A program made the position numbers and the translations under genes. The notes under the pieces are model-generated. The model saw only the letters and a list, made by a program, of their open reading frames with translations, was not told the origin of the DNA and did not search any database. DNA of 64,000 nucleotides, taken from the sequence record OX638288; one strand, given 5' to 3'. The DNA comes from Escherichia phage UP19. Shown one piece after another: positions 6,838 through 12,930 of the stretch (positions within the stretch are counted from its first letter, which is position 1; every line of letters starts with the position of its first letter).

Positions 6838-8217
6838 ATGGCTGATGTAATTGATACCCTTTTTAAACAATCCTTAGATGTTTACGATGATGCTTTTACT
6901 CGTCGTGACTTAAAAAGCATTATCGACAATGAAGCGCTGGCTTACGCAATGTATACTGTCGAAAACCGCGCCATTCCAAATATGATTGACGGCTTTAAAC
7001 CAGTGCAACGTTTTGTAGTTGCTCGTTGTCTTGATATGGCTCGTGGTAATAAAGAAAAATTCCACAAACTGGCTTCTATTGCAGGTGGTGTAGCCGACCT
7101 TGGATATCACCATGGTGAAGGTTCTGCTCAGGAAGCAGGGGCTTTGATGGCTAACACATGGAACAACAACTTCCCACTGTTGGATGGACAAGGCAACTTT
7201 GGTTCTCGTTTGGTTCAAAAGGCTGCGGCCTCTCGATATATCTTTGCTCGTATTGGAAGTAACTTTGCAAAAGTTTATAAGGATACGGAATATGCTCCGG
7301 TTCATGCAGATGTTGAACACAAGCCACCGGCTTTTTATCTGCCTATTATTCCTACTGTTCTTCTTAATGGCGTTTCCGGTATTGCAACCGGTTATGCAAC
7401 TAATATTCTTCCTCATAGTTTTGATTCTGTTAAGAAAGCTGTATTGCAAGTTCTTCAGGAAAAACGAGTAACCAAGCCGAAGGTGGCTTATCCGGAATTC
7501 CGTGGTGATGTTGTTGAGATTGAACCAGGAAGTTATGAGATTCGTGGAACGTATAAGTTCACATCTCGAACCCAAATGCATATCACGGAAATCCCATACA
7601 AATACGACCGTGAAACATATGTGGCCAAGATATTAGACCCTTTAGAAGACAAAGGGTATATCACATATGACGACGACTGTGACGAGAATGGTTTCGGCTT
7701 CAAGGTAAAAATTCGTAAAGAATATGAATTACCTACTGAAGAAAATAAGAAGCACGAAAAAATCATGAAGGACTTCGGATTAATCGAACGTCGTTCACAA
7801 AACTTAACAGTTATTAATGAGAAAGGTAAGCTCAAGGTTTACGAAGATGCTGTTGAACTGATTCGTGATTTTGTTGAGGTCCGTAAGACCTTTGTACAAA
7901 AACGTATTGATGGTAAAATCATCGAAACCGAACAGGCATTTAAACTGGCACTGGCTAAAGCCACATTTATCAAAGATGTTATTGATGGTGTAGTGGTTAT
8001 CCAAGGTAAGACCCGTAAGGTTTTAACCGAAGAATTAGCCGGTAATAAAGTCTACGGCGAATACGCTGATAAACTCGTAGCAATGAATATTTTCCATATC
8101 ACGTCCGATGAAGCTAAGAAACTGGCTTTGGAAGCCAAGGCTAAGAAAGAAGAGCATCAATACTGGAAAACCACTGATGTTGTAACTGAGTATGTTAAAG
8201 ATTTGGAGGCTCTATGA
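6838..8217 (+). CDS. 52: DNA topoisomerase II medium subunit gp52 (GyrA-like)
   Basis: 459 aa (T4 gp52 442 aa); N-terminal region resembles the GyrA/ParC cleavage-religation domain. Confidence 0.9.
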   Translation: MADVIDTLFKQSLDVYDDAFTRRDLKSIIDNEALAYAMYTVENRAIPNMIDGFKPVQRFVVARCLDMARGNKEKFHKLASIAGGVADLGYHHGEGSAQEAGALMANTWNNNFPLLDGQGNFGSRLVQKAAASRYIFARIGSNFAKVYKDTEYAPVHADVEHKPPAFYLPIIPTVLLNGVSGIATGYATNILPHSFDSVKKAVLQVLQEKRVTKPKVAYPEFRGDVVEIEPGSYEIRGTYKFTSRTQMHITEIPYKYDRETYVAKILDPLEDKGYITYDDDCDENGFGFKVKIRKEYELPTEENKKHEKIMKDFGLIERRSQNLTVINEKGKLKVYEDAVELIRDFVEVRKTFVQKRIDGKIIETEQAFKLALAKATFIKDVIDGVVVIQGKTRKVLTEELAGNKVYGEYADKLVAMNIFHITSDEAKKLALEAKAKKEEHQYWKTTDVVTEYVKDLEAL

Positions 8218-8318
8218 GCCTTGGAGTCGAGTTCTTGCTACTCTGTATCTTTGCTGTTATCCTAGGCCTGGCAACAGGCTTAGCTATAGGTTTAATAGCG
8301 GCCCACTTTAAAAAGTAA
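8214..8318 (+). CDS. small hydrophobic peptide (34 aa)
   Basis: MSLGVEFLLLCIFAVILGLATGLAIGLIAAHFKK; ATGA overlap with gp52 stop; followed by terminator. Confidence 0.4.
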   Translation: MSLGVEFLLLCIFAVILGLATGLAIGLIAAHFKK

Positions 8319-8340
8319 GGAACCTTCGGGTTCCTTTTTG
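8319..8340 (+). terminator. intrinsic terminator
   Basis: GGAACC-TTCG-GGTTCC hairpin followed by TTTTT. Confidence 0.7.
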
Positions 8341-8357
8341 GGTTTAGTGCAAAAAAG

Positions 8358-8387
8358 TGTTTACATCTGCTTTAAACATGATACTAT
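8358..8387 (+). promoter_or_regulatory. early/middle promoter cassette (GTTTAC -35, MotA-box-like TGCTTTA, TACTAT -10)
   Basis: GTTTACATCTGCTTTAAACATGATACTATAGACC; 48 bp identical to the cassette at 8703. Confidence 0.55.
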
Positions 8388-8435
8388 AGACCTATCAAAT
8401 AAATGAACTGAAACAAACAACCCGGAGATACAAAA

Positions 8436-8663
8436 ATGAAATTTAAAATCGAAAACGAAATCGTTAAAGCTAAAAATGCTCTGACTGCTAACAAACTGGT
8501 TGTAGATGGTATTGAATATGATATATGTGGAGTTCGTGAAGAAAAACCCGGTGTTCTGACTTTCTTCACAATGATTTTTAAATTTAAAGGTGACACAGAA
8601 TTCAAACAGTTTGATTTTGCCACTGAAGACGAAATCGAAGTTCGTAATCTGAACATTAAGTAA
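8436..8663 (+). CDS. hypothetical protein
   Basis: 75 aa ORF downstream of promoter cassette. Confidence 0.5.
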   Translation: MKFKIENEIVKAKNALTANKLVVDGIEYDICGVREEKPGVLTFFTMIFKFKGDTEFKQFDFATEDEIEVRNLNIK

Positions 8664-8702
8664 GTACTTTATTAGAGCTCTTGAAAAAGAGCTCAAAATA
8701 AA

Positions 8703-8732
8703 GTTTACTTCTGCTTTAAACATGATACTATA
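8703..8732 (+). promoter_or_regulatory. early/middle promoter cassette, duplicate of 8358 element, upstream of motA
   Basis: GTTTACTTCTGCTTTAAACATGATACTATAGACC. Confidence 0.55.
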
Positions 8733-8768
8733 GACCTATCAAATAAATGAACTGAAACGGAGATTAAA

Positions 8769-9401
8769 ATGTCTAAAATTACTTATATCATCAAAGCTTC
8801 TGAAGACGTCCTGAATGAAAAAACGGCTTCTATCTTAGTACATATCATCAAACACAACTTCATCACTTCAGGCGAAGTCCGTGAAGCCCTGAGTGAGCAA
8901 TTTAGTGCTGCGGTAGTTAATTCTAACATCGGTGTATTGATTAAGAAAGGATTCATCGAAAAATCCGGTGATGGACTGGTGGCTACAGGTGAAGCAATGG
9001 ACCTAGTTCAAAAAGCTGCTGACCTGTTCGCTTCCGAAAATGCTCCAGAGATGTTGGAAAAACGTAAAACTCGCAGTTCACGCGGTGTTACTCCTGAAAT
9101 GGTGGTACTGGCTGATGAAGTTAAATCTTTGTTAGAAGACCGTATCGAGATTCGTGAAATCGCTGAAAACCGTAGCAATCTTGAAGTTCGATTCGCTAAA
9201 CGTACCAACGGTATTCGTCAAATCGAAGTCCGTCGTGACGGAATGATGCGTATCTTCGGTTATAATATGACCGATAAAGAAAAACAAGTGTTTACTTCTT
9301 TGAATCTTGATGTTAAGATTAAGACTGGTGGTAAGAATACTTATATTGACTTCCAAAACGTATCATCTGAAGTTATCAAAACCGTAACCAACGCAATTTA
9401 A
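8769..9401 (+). CDS. motA: MotA middle-promoter transcription activator
   Basis: 210 aa (T4 MotA 211 aa); N-terminus MSKITYIIKAS...VNSNIGVLIKKG...KSGDGL matches recalled T4 MotA. Confidence 0.9.
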   Translation: MSKITYIIKASEDVLNEKTASILVHIIKHNFITSGEVREALSEQFSAAVVNSNIGVLIKKGFIEKSGDGLVATGEAMDLVQKAADLFASENAPEMLEKRKTRSSRGVTPEMVVLADEVKSLLEDRIEIREIAENRSNLEVRFAKRTNGIRQIEVRRDGMMRIFGYNMTDKEKQVFTSLNLDVKIKTGGKNTYIDFQNVSSEVIKTVTNAI

Positions 9402-9419
9402 CTGGCTGAGGAAATTATT

Positions 9420-9749
9420 ATGAACAAGCTGAATATTGTTAATGAACTTCGTCGTTGTGCAGAACCTACTCAAGAAGGTTGGGATATTTGGTACCATGGC
9501 GCTTATCTTGGAACTATTGTTAAGATTAAAGCAGGTAAATACTTAATCATCCGTGGTGGTTCTGAAGCTTCTATGGGAATTCGTAAGAACTTTATGGCAG
9601 CCATCAGCACCTTTGTTCCGGCCGCTTATGAAGTCTATAAAGCGGACTACAAAGAATACCAGGAATCACAACCAGTTATTCGTTCAATTGGTGTTAATAA
9701 AGCTCAACAGAAAACTTTATGGCAACGTGTTAAAGGATGGTTCAAATGA
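9420..9749 (+). CDS. hypothetical protein
   Basis: 109 aa ORF. Confidence 0.5.
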   Translation: MNKLNIVNELRRCAEPTQEGWDIWYHGAYLGTIVKIKAGKYLIIRGGSEASMGIRKNFMAAISTFVPAAYEVYKADYKEYQESQPVIRSIGVNKAQQKTLWQRVKGWFK

Positions 9750-10084
9750 TTCCGATGGAACTTAACTGGGACGGCGAAGGTCATTCCCTTAAATTGATTG
9801 AAGAACAGCGTAATGATTGGGACGAACGTGTAGCTTTGGTAAATGGTATTAAGAAAATTTACCAACTCAATCTCCAGATTGACAATGTTCATCTTGAATT
9901 TGGTATGCAGTTATTGCGGTTTCTTGAGATTATTTTTATAGAAAAAGTAAACATAACTTCGCATGGCGTGGCCCAAACAGTTGATATTAAATTATCATCC
10001 TATTATAAAGGTGATTTAATTGAAACTGCCGCCAAAATTCAAGAATTTGCTAAAGATAACGGTCATAAGGTGATTTTCAAATGA
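9746..10084 (+). CDS. hypothetical protein
   Basis: ATGA-coupled start; ORF track 9737..10084. Confidence 0.5.
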
Positions 10085-10569
10085 ATCCATTAAAAGCTAA
10101 AGAATTATCTTTTAAAGCCCAAATGGCTTTATTGGATAAAGCTCTTTCTCGTGAGACGCCTAAAAGTCTTGCTGCTAAATTACAGGCCTATGGCGATTAC
10201 ACTGAATATTCGGAAGAGGATGTTTTGAATGAAGTCCCGGAAATCTGTTGGCAGATTGCGCATTGGAATAACAATGAAAAATACCAACGTCGAATTGTAT
10301 GTGCTGCCAATCGCTTTAAGTTAAAAGACGGTGGGACTCTAGTTATTCCAGGAGCTCGTCATTATTCTAAAGATATGGCAGAAGTGCTTGACCAAGTAAG
10401 TGATAAACTTGTGTCAGAGCATGTTTGCGGCGATGACCAAGGATTTATCGACCAATACTCAAATTATTGGACTCGCGAAGAAGCAATGATTATTGCAACA
10501 TATGCTAATCAAGTTCGTATTGAACGTGGTGGTAGTGAAAAAGAACTTTACTCTGAGGACCTTTACTAA
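10081..10569 (+). CDS. hypothetical protein
   Basis: 162 aa ORF, coupled to neighbours. Confidence 0.5.
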
Positions 10570-10850
10570 TGAATCTTAAACAACTCCAGATTGATGCAAT
10601 CGAAGCCCATATCAACCACATTAAACGTCTGAATGTTATGGTTGAAGACAACTGGGGAACTTATGTCAACCAGCCGGCTTGGGATGCATTAGACCATGAA
10701 TATATAAAGAATATTAGTTCTAAGACAATTCATGGGAATATGGAAGGGTTGAAGCCGTTCCTACGTGATATGTATATTGCAACTAATAAAGAAATTATCA
10801 GTTCTCTTGAATATCAATTAAGGAAATTACGTGAACAATCTTGTAGCTAA
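10569..10850 (+). CDS. hypothetical protein (T4 arn position; identity not confirmed)
   Basis: 93 aa; position between motA and asiA. Confidence 0.4.
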   Translation: MNLKQLQIDAIEAHINHIKRLNVMVEDNWGTYVNQPAWDALDHEYIKNISSKTIHGNMEGLKPFLRDMYIATNKEIISSLEYQLRKLREQSCS

Positions 10851-11153
10851 GCACGATTTCAATAAGGCTTCGGTCCATAAGGACAAGAAGAAAAATTTTA
10901 AAGAGTCCAAGCGTAAGCAGAAACATAAGGGTAAAGGGTATGAGTCATAACTTAGAGAATACCGTAACAGGTATGCGTACTCGTGAGCAGGAGTGCTTTG
11001 AGGAATTCCTAGGAGCTGATTTTAAGTTCCAGGAACCTATTGAAGAAATGTATCAGGAATATGTTAAAAAGAACGAAGAACATGTTTACAATCCATAAGG
11101 ATATGTTATTATAGCCTTATCAGATAATGTCGTACTGAATTGAAGAGAATATT

Positions 11154-11429
11154 ATGACTAAAATTGAAATCGTTTCCGAAATTGCTACTATTGCTTCCAT
11201 TTTGATTAAAACGGATTGTGAAGACATCATGCAACGCCGTGATGAGTTTATTGCCTTTTTGAATGAGTTGGGTATTCGTAATGAACATGGAAAGGAACTT
11301 AACGGCCTATCTTTTAATAAACTCTTTAAGTCTTTAACTGAAGATGAACGTGATACTCTTATTGAGCAATTTAATGAAGGGTATGAAGATATACACCGTT
11401 ATCTAATGATGTATACCTCCAATTTTTAA
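11154..11429 (+). CDS. asiA: AsiA anti-sigma-70 factor
   Basis: 91 aa; ...IASILIK...FIAFLNE...LIEQFNEGYEDIHRYLMMYT matches recalled T4 AsiA. Confidence 0.9.
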   Translation: MTKIEIVSEIATIASILIKTDCEDIMQRRDEFIAFLNELGIRNEHGKELNGLSFNKLFKSLTEDERDTLIEQFNEGYEDIHRYLMMYTSNF

Positions 11430-12079
11430 CGAGTTCGACCTAATGTCCTCCCGGCCTGACCACACATAGACGAAAGTCTAGGAAATCCTAAATCCGGTTT
11501 GATGTCATACCAGTATAATGATATCGAGCCGGCATAGATGTTATCCAAATTAAAAAACGGGCATGAAAACATATACGTGAATTGGGTTTTCTTCTTTGTA
11601 GGAAGGAACACACTTTCTGTACTTGATTCAAAATAGTTCCCGTTAACTCCAGCCATATATTCTACCGACGTTTTGTCAATCGGAAATCCTCCCGTATTTT
11701 TTGCGTCTACCGTTTCCGGTAATTTACCCTCATAAGCTACCATATCCACAAAATAATTCATGTTGGTCGGCCTAAAAGAATATATTGCTGTGAAGTCTGC
11801 GCCTGAAGAAGAATGCACTATTCGGAGCTGCTCGATAGCCGCAATTTTAAATCTATTGTCCTGGTCTTGTCTAATCATTTCAGTATAAGAGGCATAAGTT
11901 GTCTCTTTATAAAAGTTTAGAATATGCTCGCCTTTATACCAAACTAATGCCATAAAGAACAATAATATTACGACTAGGACCCGGGAAAAAACTACTTTCC
12001 CGGAAGAAGTATCTTTAAAAATTCTATCAAGAAGTCCAAAAAGTAGGTCCGATAATGAAAATCCTACTTTTGGTTCCAT
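11426..12079 (-). CDS. t: holin T
   Basis: 217 aa (T4 holin 218 aa); N-terminal TM region plus large periplasmic domain; ...NLDNIYAG...YWY... Confidence 0.9.
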   Translation of the reverse strand: MEPKVGFSLSDLLFGLLDRIFKDTSSGKVVFSRVLVVILLFFMALVWYKGEHILNFYKETTYASYTEMIRQDQDNRFKIAAIEQLRIVHSSSGADFTAIYSFRPTNMNYFVDMVAYEGKLPETVDAKNTGGFPIDKTSVEYMAGVNGNYFESSTESVFLPTKKKTQFTYMFSCPFFNLDNIYAGSISLYWYDIKPDLGFPRLSSMCGQAGRTLGRTR

Positions 12080-12121: not shown

Positions 12122-12898
12122 TTATAACCAAGAGCCATAGATAGTGCCTGTCGCGCCCCATGAAGGACTATTACCACTTACAGCAGGCCCTGCAGCTCCA
12201 GGTGGAGACATGGATACACGGCGTCCATAACCCCAGCCGCCTGCAGCGCCTGCGTCACCACCCCAACCGCCACCAAACTGTCCGCCGGCATCCCCGGGAC
12301 CACCAGCCCCAGCATAACTAGCGTTACCGCCAGGTCTATAACTAGTTGCACCACCTAACCCGAATGGTCTGCCACCGCCACCGCCGCAGGTTGAGCCAGA
12401 AGGATAGCTATTTTGCAATGATGTAGCACCGCCACCACCGCCACCACCACAGATAACACCATAGTTCCATATGCGTAAACGCCCACCAATTTCATTATAA
12501 ATTGCTGTACCGCCTTGTTGGCCTCCACCGCCATTGGTTGCGCCATTACCACCGCGTCCCCACATATGAACCCCGCCATGAATATTCAAAGTAACATATT
12601 CGTTAGGGATGTCACTATTCATAAAGAACAATGGAAGGTCTCTAGTATAAGATACTAAATCGCCGGTGATATTAAACACAATAGGTGCAGCGCCGGCTTC
12701 AAAACAACGGTCTCTAAACCAATACCCATTGAAGTTGTGGTCTGCTCCAAGTGTGTGAATTATTTCAACAGACCGACCTACCATATTACTCATCCAAAAC
12801 GGAGCACCCATTCTCAATCGTTGGGCAGCGCCGCCCATCCAATTTTGTCCCGTATTAGCTAATGCAGAAGTTCCTATCCACGGTCCTGCTACTGCCAT
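12122..12898 (-). CDS. 38: gp38 long tail fibre adhesin, T2-type with glycine-rich motifs
   Basis: poly-Gly segments ([22 protein letters not shown]); N-terminus MAVAGPWIG like T2 gp38; start moved to ATG with GGAGG ribosome-binding site (ORF track 12122..12910 starts at TTG). Confidence 0.85.
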
Positions 12899-12930
12899 AT
12901 AAACCTCCAAGGGGCCGGAAGCCCCTCTTA

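Follow-up and report, generated by a model that had tools for sequence, protein, structure and literature searches.

Between the middle-transcription regulator genes motA and asiA of Escherichia phage UP19 lie four overlapping open reading frames (ORFs) that encode proteins of 109, 112, 162 and 93 amino acids (aa). They occupy positions 9420-10850, on the plus strand, of the stretch analysed here, 64,000 nucleotides (nt) of sequence record OX638288, referred to below as the window. Around this interval (window bases 8700-11500) the DNA is 96.9% identical to that of Escherichia phage MN04 and 92-95% identical to that of NC-G, IME341, Bp7, JS10 and IME08, all members of Dhakavirus, and by sequence UP19 is itself a Dhakavirus, a JS98/MN04-like relative of T4 among the T4-like Straboviridae. 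Comparison of the individual genes leaves us nearly certain that the four represent the Dhakavirus version of the T-even arn operon, composed of arn.4, a 112-aa insert (ORF112), arn.3 and arn.2. The N-terminal part of Arn.3 matches the antitoxin of a bacterial system that defends against T-even phages, and this match provides the lead to a possible function.

The original prediction described four ORFs of these lengths between the two regulator genes, overlapping by 1-4 nt, and both statements are borne out. The junctions read ATGA at 9746-9749 and again at 10081-10084 (4-nt overlaps) and TAATG at 10567-10571 (a 1-nt overlap), and each start is preceded, at a distance of 6-10 nt, by a Shine-Dalgarno-like purine run (GAGG 9408-9411, AAGGA 9733-9737, AAGGTGA 10067-10073 and GAGGA 10555-10559). 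An in-frame ATG at 9737 would lengthen the second ORF to 115 aa; its homologues and the family phrog_14178 begin at 9746. PHROG families match all four ORFs along their full length (expectation (E) values of 2e-53, 1e-66, 2e-71 and 2e-40, in gene order), and all four are annotated coding sequences in close relatives with 92-97% DNA identity. The string of coupled genes is, however, longer than the four that were predicted to form it: overlapping genes run past 10850 through two further ORFs of 39 and 52 aa, and only then comes the promoter of asiA itself (Table 1).

None of the four had seemed recognisable from the letters alone, a view that comparison with T4 overturns for three of them. Arn.4 is 83% identical to the T4 reading frame over all 109 aa (tblastn), Arn.3 is 70% and Arn.2 39% identical to the T4 proteins, and ORF112 alone lacks a T4 counterpart in comparison with T4 proteins and DNA. 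The records of JS10 and Bp7 already name arn.4, arn.3 and arn.2. In T4 the interval from motA to asiA holds arn.4, arn.3, arn.2, arn.1, arn and asiA.1; arn had been correctly expected there, but motA.1, expected with it, lies on the other side of motA, next to gene 52. The UP19 locus shares with T2 and T4 the position between motA and asiA and the order arn.4, arn.3, arn.2, and with T4 also the ATGA at the arn.4/arn.3 border and the TAATG through which the arn.2 start overlaps the arn.3 stop. It differs from the T2 and T4 operons in its extra gene, ORF112, between arn.4 and arn.3, and in lacking arn.1, a 70-nt intergenic region, arn, and the CCAGGGAAAT site in arn.2 for the host small RNA ArcZ.

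Table 1. Features of the motA-asiA interval and its flanks, in window positions
Feature	Position	Strand	Evidence or remark
75-aa ORF	8436-8663	+	phrog_10955; upstream of motA
T4-early-type promoter upstream of motA	8703..8731	+	GTTTAC 8703-8708, 16-nt spacer from TTTACT, TACTAT 8726-8731; sequence reading
motA, activator of middle transcription	8769..9401	+	Pfam MotA_activ E 3.8e-39, MotCF E 1.1e-13; 52% identity to T4 MotA
arn.4 orthologue, 109 aa, basic, isoelectric point (pI) 9.7	9420..9749	+	phrog_1594 E 2.4e-53 over 1-109
13-nt direct repeat TTCAAATGAWTCC, left copy	9741..9753	+	spans arn.4 stop and ORF112 start
ORF112, 112 aa, lineage-specific insert at the arn.4/arn.3 junction	9746..10084	+	phrog_14178 E 1.2e-66
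13-nt direct repeat TTCAAATGAWTCC, right copy	10076..10088	+	spans ORF112 stop and arn.3 start
arn.3 orthologue, 162 aa, two-module protein	10081..10569	+	70% identity to T4 Arn.3; phrog_839 E 1.8e-71; 369 homologues
Arn.3 N-module, aa 9-40, homologue of the two N-terminal helices of CmdA	10105..10200	+	PADLOC PD-T4-9_B E 5.3e-7
Arn.3 C-terminal domain, aa 68-162, Pfam PF26092 (T4_Y16D)	10282..10566	+	conserved polar residues
arn.2 orthologue, 93 aa	10569..10850	+	39% identity to T4 Arn.2, E 5e-21; phrog_1844 E 1.9e-40
39-aa very basic ORF (DUF7230, pI 10.2), GTG start	10831..10950	+	Pfam DUF7230 E 6e-13; 20-nt overlap with arn.2
52-aa acidic ORF, AsiA.1-like N terminus, last of the string	10940..11098	+	46% identity over 24 aa to T4 AsiA.1; phrog_5245 E 5e-35; 11-nt overlap
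Promoter-like site for asiA	11085..11112	+	TTTACA, 16-nt spacer, TG-TATTAT; 10/12 matches in scan, extended -10; ends the coupled string
asiA, anti-sigma-70 factor	11154..11429	+	Pfam AsiA E 2.7e-23; 53% identity to T4 AsiA; bounds the interval

These absences limit what can be carried over from T2 and T4. T4 Arn, which closes the same operon in T4, is a DNA mimic that inhibits McrBC. T4 arn.2 carries CCAGGGAAAT at +285..+294, a site reported to pair with ArcZ and to shield the T2 arn transcript from ribonuclease (RNase) E (Collins et al., bioRxiv 10.64898/2026.06.19.733364). We found arn in T4 and JS10 and not in UP19; sequence comparison and tblastn revealed no homologue in the window of arn, of arn.1 or of an acidic 93-aa ORF present in JS10. 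The window copy of arn.2 has no CCAGGGAAAT, no intergenic region behind it and no arn.1, and the next ORF overlaps it by 20 nt. The published control by ArcZ and RNase E, together with the McrBC-inhibitor payload, therefore cannot apply to UP19 as described.

Two side observations belong here. The acidic JS10 ORF stands at the arn position (locus L001, 3753-4034), ends in ...LEDYID and has no counterpart in UP19 and MN04; it resembles T4 Arn weakly, over the last 36 residues of the latter (28% identity at a pairwise E of 0.001), and may be a divergent Arn. In UP19, AAATTATTATGA (9411-9422, the ribosome-binding region and start codon of arn.4) forms a perfect 12-nt complement to the 5' part of the ArcZ sequence used here, in which only the segment 64-73 is validated, by the T4 site; the match would fall at about nt 39-50 of that sequence and not in the Hfq-bound seed. 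The complementarity is AT-rich and may have arisen by chance.

Existing annotation adds little to the question of function. Many database homologues of the four ORFs are labelled 'anti-restriction nuclease', which looks like propagation of a name from the neighbouring arn and not like evidence. The Pfam families PF26092 (T4_Y16D) and PF26821, built around T4 Arn.3 and Arn.4 and assigned to homologues of the 162-aa and 109-aa proteins in precomputed annotation, carry no functional annotation: they name the proteins and do not explain them. A full-text literature search on arn.2, arn.3 and arn.4 returned a sole relevant paper, the June 2026 preprint on ArcZ in T2, which still describes the arn.x genes as unknown (Collins et al.).

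The two modules of Arn.3

The N-terminal module of Arn.3 is recognized by the PADLOC profile PD-T4-9_B, with residues 9-39 matching positions 2-32 of the 77 in the hidden Markov model. The same profile matched 24 of 121 Arn.3 homologues (best E 2.5e-10), and PADLOC gave no other match on the seven proteins of the interval that were scanned. PD-T4-9 is CmdTAC, an abortive-infection toxin-antitoxin-chaperone system that resides in P2-like prophages and is specific for Tevenvirinae (Vassallo et al. 2022, 2024). In this system the major capsid protein of T4 titrates the SecB-like chaperone CmdC off the antitoxin CmdA, ClpXP degrades CmdA by way of its C-terminal LAA, and the freed CmdT, an mRNA ADP-ribosyltransferase, blocks translation (Vassallo et al.).

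An authentic cmdTAC locus was found in E. coli N2250 with the help of a cloning primer listed in the paper's supplement. It measures 1214 bp, the size of the ECOR22 locus, and sits in a P2-like prophage between P2 gene A and the portal gene, with cmdA placed between cmdT and the SecB-like gene. N2250 CmdA is a protein of 77 aa that runs from MLSFEQRMALLNKALQQYNPESLYEKLSSYPAYGP... to ...ELDLAA. BLASTP aligned residues 9-40 of the window Arn.3 with residues 2-33 of E. coli CmdA, 17 of 32 positions being identical (53%, E 3e-8), and tblastn of CmdA against the whole window yielded a single match, at the Arn.3 N-module (E 2e-6). The reciprocal tblastn search, of CmdA against 50,697 phage records, retrieved 85 records; among the matches listed, almost all were the 5' ends of arn.3 genes in T4-like phages, including Dhakaviruses at 59% identity, Klebsiella phages at 69% and Erwinia phage FBB1. 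This search also retrieved a genuine cmdTAC locus in a P2-like Vibrio prophage, annotated PD-T4-9_A/B/C, which confirms that component B is the antitoxin.

The phage modules stand as near to E. coli CmdA as does the CmdA of Vibrio, which has 15 of 33 residues in common with it: they share 17-19 identities, the N terminus of FBB1 Arn.3 being identical at 19 of 31 positions, and the Dhakavirus module of the window is among the coliphage alleles closest to the E. coli protein. In the structural model of Arn.3, helices at residues 11-23 and 27-36 match the architecture described for CmdA. Scanning GTDB genomes with a motif of the N-module gave two coincidental matches only, to a K+-channel-like and a DinB-like protein, and no CmdA. 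We consider the homology between Arn.3 and CmdA, as judged from these alignments, to be solid and confined to the helical part; the literature searched on the arn genes and on CmdTAC makes no mention of it.

Beyond the roughly 33 N-terminal residues of CmdA, which form its two helices, the likeness ends. Past residue 40 the Arn.3 chain leads into the folded T4_Y16D domain and terminates in ...YSEDLY, where CmdA has a disordered chaperone-addiction tail and the LAA degron. Its setting is also different: Arn.3 is encoded by a lytic phage, is fused to T4_Y16D and is flanked by ORF112 and arn.2, with neither cmdT nor cmdC, the SecB-like gene, beside it. Sequence and context together identify the N-module as a homologous module and do not place Arn.3 in the family of toxin-antitoxin-chaperone antitoxins. 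Here a lytic phage has a gene for a protein related to the antitoxin of a defence system but none for the toxin.

Two proteins have the module in other arrangements. A Dhakavirus-like Arn.3 variant of 203 aa (P0002) has two tandem CmdA-like N-modules of different allelic types, and a protein of 104 aa (P0088) has an N-module with no detectable T4_Y16D domain. The CmdA-like module behaves as a mobile unit.

The second module, T4_Y16D, is an alpha/beta domain modelled with confidence: the AlphaFold2 (AF2) model of Arn.3 has a predicted local distance difference test (pLDDT) score of 86, rising above 90 for residues 50-162. A search with the T4_Y16D profile among 1.84 billion representative proteins revealed 6219 clusters at E <= 0.001, mostly stand-alone proteins of 90-130 aa or proteins in which the domain follows unrelated N-terminal extensions, with some tandem arrangements and one fusion to a helix-hairpin-helix domain resembling the C-terminal domain of the RNA polymerase alpha subunit (alpha-CTD). 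In all 150 matches listed, out of the 6219 clusters, the domain lies at the extreme C terminus and ends in L[FY]SE[ND]LY. The near-invariant residues are all present in the window protein (R93, H94, Q120-G-F-x-D124-Q, R132, Q144 and S158-E159-x-L-Y162). Foldseek searches of BFVD with the Arn.3 model returned almost only uncharacterised phage proteins. On these data T4_Y16D looks like a widespread phage domain with the conservation of a binding or active site and with no fold relative in the PDB.

The surroundings of the domain elsewhere offer few clues. Five distant contigs that carry T4_Y16D had no recurrent neighbour and held unrelated small ORFs. The only functionally suggestive neighbour among these five contexts is on a 229-kilobase metagenomic phage contig (locus L010, 4001-4860), where a stand-alone T4_Y16D gene overlaps with the beginning of one that encodes an HD_4 (SpoT-like HD hydrolase) domain. 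Marginal BFVD matches of the Arn.3 model (A0A6J5LI71, A0A6J5LG11 and A0A6J5SNR6, E 5e-3 to 5e-2), all from uncultured phages, bear the name 'large polyvalent protein associated domain', and on the strength of the model T4_Y16D may also occur inside polyvalent anti-defence proteins.

Antitoxin mimicry and its alternatives

Given that Arn.3 keeps the helical part of CmdA and has neither the tail nor the degron, we propose that it could be a stable orphan antitoxin, a mimic directed against CmdT-type toxins; we advance this tentatively and regard it as possible but not probable. Made early, Arn.3 would be a stable, chaperone-independent and degron-less copy of the structured part of CmdA, which would bind CmdT-type toxins, or occupy the partner of CmdA, once the host antitoxin had been degraded, and T4_Y16D would contribute a further, second function. 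Such mimicry is made plausible by the finding that mutations stabilising CmdA let T4 escape CmdTAC (Vassallo et al.). A conceptual precedent is AdfN (gp30.3), the orphan DarG-like NADAR antitoxin with which T-even phages counter DarTG1 (Johannesman et al. 2024, PMC11257639); like Arn.3, it is a stand-alone T-even relative of an antitoxin from a defence system whose toxin is an ADP-ribosyltransferase. The parallel has its limits, since AdfN is a proven enzyme that removes ADP-ribose from DNA, whereas Arn.3 resembles a type II-like antitoxin in no more than a short helical segment that is not enzymatic, a resemblance known from sequence.

A more elaborate form of this proposal, which we find somewhat more doubtful, would make Arn.3 a chimeric counter-defence protein. 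Its N-module would be a captured CmdA, stripped of tail and degron, that docks on a CmdT-type toxin or on the partner of CmdA, and T4_Y16D, apparently a new fold with an enzyme-like site, would add an activity such as reversal or blockade of the toxin. The allele types of the N-module (T4-type, MKTF-type and Dhakavirus-type) would then reflect an arms race with CmdT alleles, and the window allele would protect against at least some natural CmdTAC systems.

Several observations weigh against antitoxin mimicry, among them the phenotypes of phages that carry the module. The ECOR22 CmdTAC system restricts T2, T4, T6 and 10 of 12 BASEL Tevenvirinae, with Bas35 and Bas38 as the exceptions (Vassallo et al.). 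We compared the published sensitivities with the arn.3 genes of these 15 phages (T2, T4, T6 and the 12 BASEL phages); all 15 encode an Arn.3 with the module, yet they are mostly sensitive to CmdTAC. The T4-type module (MNPFINRLKMLNVPL..., 10-11 of 32 residues identical to CmdA) is found in T2, T4, T6, Bas37 and Bas39-45, and all 11 of these phages are sensitive. The MKTF-type module is found in the insensitive Bas35 and Bas38 (14/32 identical to CmdA) and likewise in the sensitive Bas36 (16/32) and Bas46 (15/32). Insensitivity in two of four phages with the MKTF-type against none of 11 with the T4-type corresponds to a one-sided Fisher p = 6/105 = 0.057, a value computed by hand and confounded by phylogeny. 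Because the association is weak, meets two counter-examples and is entangled with relatedness, we do not count this split as support; the module type is permissive at best and not sufficient.

Further reservations concern the proteins themselves. The segment shared by Arn.3 and CmdA spans only about 32 residues, and in many type II antitoxins it is the DNA, not the toxin, that is bound by the N-terminal domain; the part of CmdA that contacts CmdT was not found in the literature searched. T4_Y16D is far commoner without the N-module than with it, so that the main function of Arn.3 is possibly unrelated to CmdTAC. The same literature holds no experimental data on neutralisation of CmdTAC by Arn.3 and no experiment on any of the four proteins.

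About the same weight as antitoxin mimicry, and thus an equally tentative standing, attaches to the view that the helices resembling CmdA are an all-purpose adaptor, serving for example in oligomerisation or in docking to a partner, which phages and the P2-borne CmdTAC happen to have in common. The real activity would then reside in T4_Y16D. Working independently of CmdTAC, this domain would be a small enzyme or would bind a ligand or nucleic acid; it might, for instance, modify RNA or DNA or serve as a sponge for nucleotide signals. The spread of this domain across 6219 representative clusters, mostly alone or behind unrelated extensions, agrees well with such a role, as do its confident, compact model and the near-invariant polar residues (R-H, QGFxDQ, R, Q and SExLY at a free C terminus), which are typical of a binding or active site; the continued CmdTAC sensitivity of module-carrying phages fits it too. 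The lack of a recurrent neighbouring gene counts against this view, which also leaves unexplained that the N-module is as near to E. coli CmdA as is the CmdA of Vibrio.

A third possibility, which we judge unlikely, is that the four proteins are not anti-defence proteins at all and act instead as host-takeover factors tied to the MotA/AsiA switch, to translation or to RNA metabolism. The genes do lie between two regulators of middle transcription and appear to be co-transcribed with motA; Arn.4 is basic and the 39-aa ORF product extremely so, in the manner of nucleic-acid binders, and one T4_Y16D protein has the alpha-CTD-like domain. The best matches of Arn.2 point the same way, being to ribosome hibernation factors, but they are very weak (E 0.07-0.11, far below family cut-offs) and uninformative, and its best PDB match has E = 1. 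Close relatives, moreover, differ in the gene content of the interval, an uncommon trait in core takeover functions, and T2 and T4 tolerate lesions in arn.4.

We consider it very improbable that any of the ORFs encodes an anti-restriction protein that mimics DNA in the way of Arn, Ocr or ArdA. What recommends the idea is that the T4 version of the operon ends with Arn and that databases carry the 'anti-restriction nuclease' label discussed above. However, nothing in the window resembles T4 Arn or the acidic JS10 ORF, none of the four proteins has an informative PDB sequence match in searches at E up to 10, and the Arn.3 model, an alpha/beta fold, has no similarity to known mimics. The charges are also wrong: the four proteins, in gene order, have net charges of +8, -4, -7 and -1 and pI values of 9.71, 5.51, 5.04 and 6.40, against -9 in 92 aa and a pI of 4.55 for Arn, and none has the strongly acidic surface (pI of about 4-4.5) of such mimics. 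On the grounds of charge and of the missing similarity to Arn, Ocr and ArdA, we rejected Arn-type mimicry. Least of all, with practically no probability left to it, do we credit the view that the ORFs are frames left open by chance or products of faulty annotation, which has their small size in its favour and nothing more, and which is already refuted by the full-length PHROG matches, by hundreds of conserved homologues with in-frame variation, by the Shine-Dalgarno-like sequences and by the detection of RNA and of His-tagged Arn.2 protein for the T2 operon (Collins et al.).

Scans against Pfam, NCBIfam and PADLOC placed nothing above family cut-offs for the four proteins except PD-T4-9_B on Arn.3, and no housekeeping family, which was looked for in the Pfam and NCBIfam results, could be assigned to any of them. 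Neither single-sequence nor profile searches of the PDB (E up to 10) gave an explanatory match for any of the four. Matches to Ribosomal_S10, DNA_gyraseB, HPF/RaiA and REase_II fell below family cut-offs and were rejected. For Arn.4, ORF112 and Arn.2 these data allow no mechanism to be proposed.

Gene turnover in the interval and its surroundings

ORF112 is, by its distribution, a fast-evolving insert restricted to Dhakavirus. Among 5.8 billion proteins its homologues form 6 clusters only, all 63-96% identical, and the JS10 allele is 64% identical and has an in-frame indel of 4 aa, with flanking genes 97-100% identical. Its first 20 or so residues are identical to those at the N terminus of Arn.3 from Serratia, Pectobacterium and metagenomic phages. 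On either side of the gene stands a copy of the 13-nt direct repeat TTCAAATGAWTCC, which occurs twice in the window against an expectation of 0, twice also in NC-G and MN04, and once in JS10. At the same arn.4/arn.3 junction, Bas35 (MZ501113, 12841-12996) has an unrelated 51-aa ORF; Bas35 is one of the phages that CmdTAC does not restrict. From the direct repeat, the divergence of ORF112 alleles, the Arn.3-like N terminus and the Bas35 ORF we conclude that the arn.4/arn.3 junction is a recombination hotspot at which small genes are swapped in and out.

Arn.4 has the marks of a conserved yet expendable protein. Its homologues fall into 48 clusters, all of 107-114 aa and 63-90% identical, carry Pfam PF26821 and occur in T4-like phages only; the AF2 model is poor (pLDDT 59.5). 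The gene directly follows motA also in T4, JS10, T2, T6 and 12 BASEL phages, and is an intact 330-nt frame in T6 and in 12 of the 12 BASEL phages examined. In T4 the full frame of 109 codons is open and its first codon is ATA, not ATG (locus L004, 2957-2628), which accounts for the 68-aa annotation in the reference. In T2 the ATG is kept and a frameshift follows about 85 nt downstream (locus L034, 5311-5640); T2 too is annotated with 68 aa. Independent lesions in the N-terminal part in two laboratory phages fit a dispensable accessory gene.

We infer that this string of early or middle genes forms, as a whole, a cassette whose dispensable members are gained and lost through recombination at the short, conserved gene junctions. 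An accessory role for this cassette, in counter-defence or in interaction with the host, appears to us moderately probable. The original prediction had named the four genes as candidates for host takeover or anti-defence; the CmdA-like module of the 162-aa protein now gives the anti-defence suggestion a definite lead, and the Arn-like DNA mimicry suggested along with it finds no support. Taken together, an arn-operon variant that serves as a counter-defence cassette, with Arn.3 as the lead, is our best overall explanation, with the chances for and against it evenly balanced.

The plus-strand genes of the region are ordered as gene 52 (topoisomerase), a 34-aa membrane ORF, the 75-aa ORF, motA, the four ORFs, the 39-aa ORF, the 52-aa ORF and asiA, in agreement with the T4 map around motA and asiA; the minus strand carries holin t, gp38 and gp37. 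Upstream of motA is a sequence that we take, from the consensus of T4 early promoters, to function as an early promoter, and which is likely the start of a motA-arn transcription unit. The first ORF follows the motA stop after a gap of just 18 nt, and because this gap contains neither promoter nor terminator we assign the four ORFs to the motA unit. Scanning revealed no terminator-like site on the plus strand across 8336-11225 (bounded by the stem-loop that follows gene 52 and by a weak site within asiA), no promoter-like site after motA and before 11085, and no Rfam family match in window positions 8000-11600. From this anatomy we infer that motA through the 52-aa ORF are transcribed as a single unit and that their translation is coupled. 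For T2, a single, abundant RNA spanning the arn genes has been reported (Collins et al.).

Some further features of the region deserve mention. A near-identical copy of the motA-upstream promoter block (GTTTAC...TGCTTTAAACATGATACTATAGACCTATCAAATAAATGAACTGAAAC) is found at about 8358-8387, ahead of the 75-aa ORF; the duplicated blocks span approximately 8353-8415 and 8700-8762, with 60 identical positions between the compared 76-nt blocks. The promoter scan listed one of these two copies, the other being one match below its threshold. The doubled block resembles the duplicated promoter cassettes that have been connected with the shuffling of ORFs in T4-type phages. Inside arn.3, at 10385-10409, is the sole MotA-box-like match of the interval (TGCTTGA, 12 nt, TAAACT), whose role as a middle promoter is unproven; across the whole window there are 14 such matches against 5.5 expected. 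The 39-aa DUF7230 ORF shares 87% identity with an unannotated frame of T4 NC_000866.4 (locus L004, 1700-1587, minus strand), which overlaps both the start of arn and the 3' end of the annotated arn.1; in T2 and T6 the frame is annotated, as a 120-nt coding sequence. Downstream, gp38 (12122-12910, minus strand) is of the glycine-rich adhesin type known from T2 and T6, not of the T4 chaperone type, with a local guanine-cytosine content of up to 0.57.

The genes themselves are catalogued, conserved 'hypothetical' members of the arn operon, and to this our analysis adds the likeness of the Arn.3 N-module to CmdA and a view of the operon as a cassette of genes swapped at short junctions. The arn.x genes have been without a function since the annotation of the T4 genome, and the homology between Arn.3 and CmdA yields a testable idea. 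If it is true, Arn.3 would be the second case, after AdfN, of orphan antitoxins in lytic phages and the first for a toxin-antitoxin-chaperone system, and it would give a first handle on T4_Y16D, which is among the more widespread uncharacterised phage domains.

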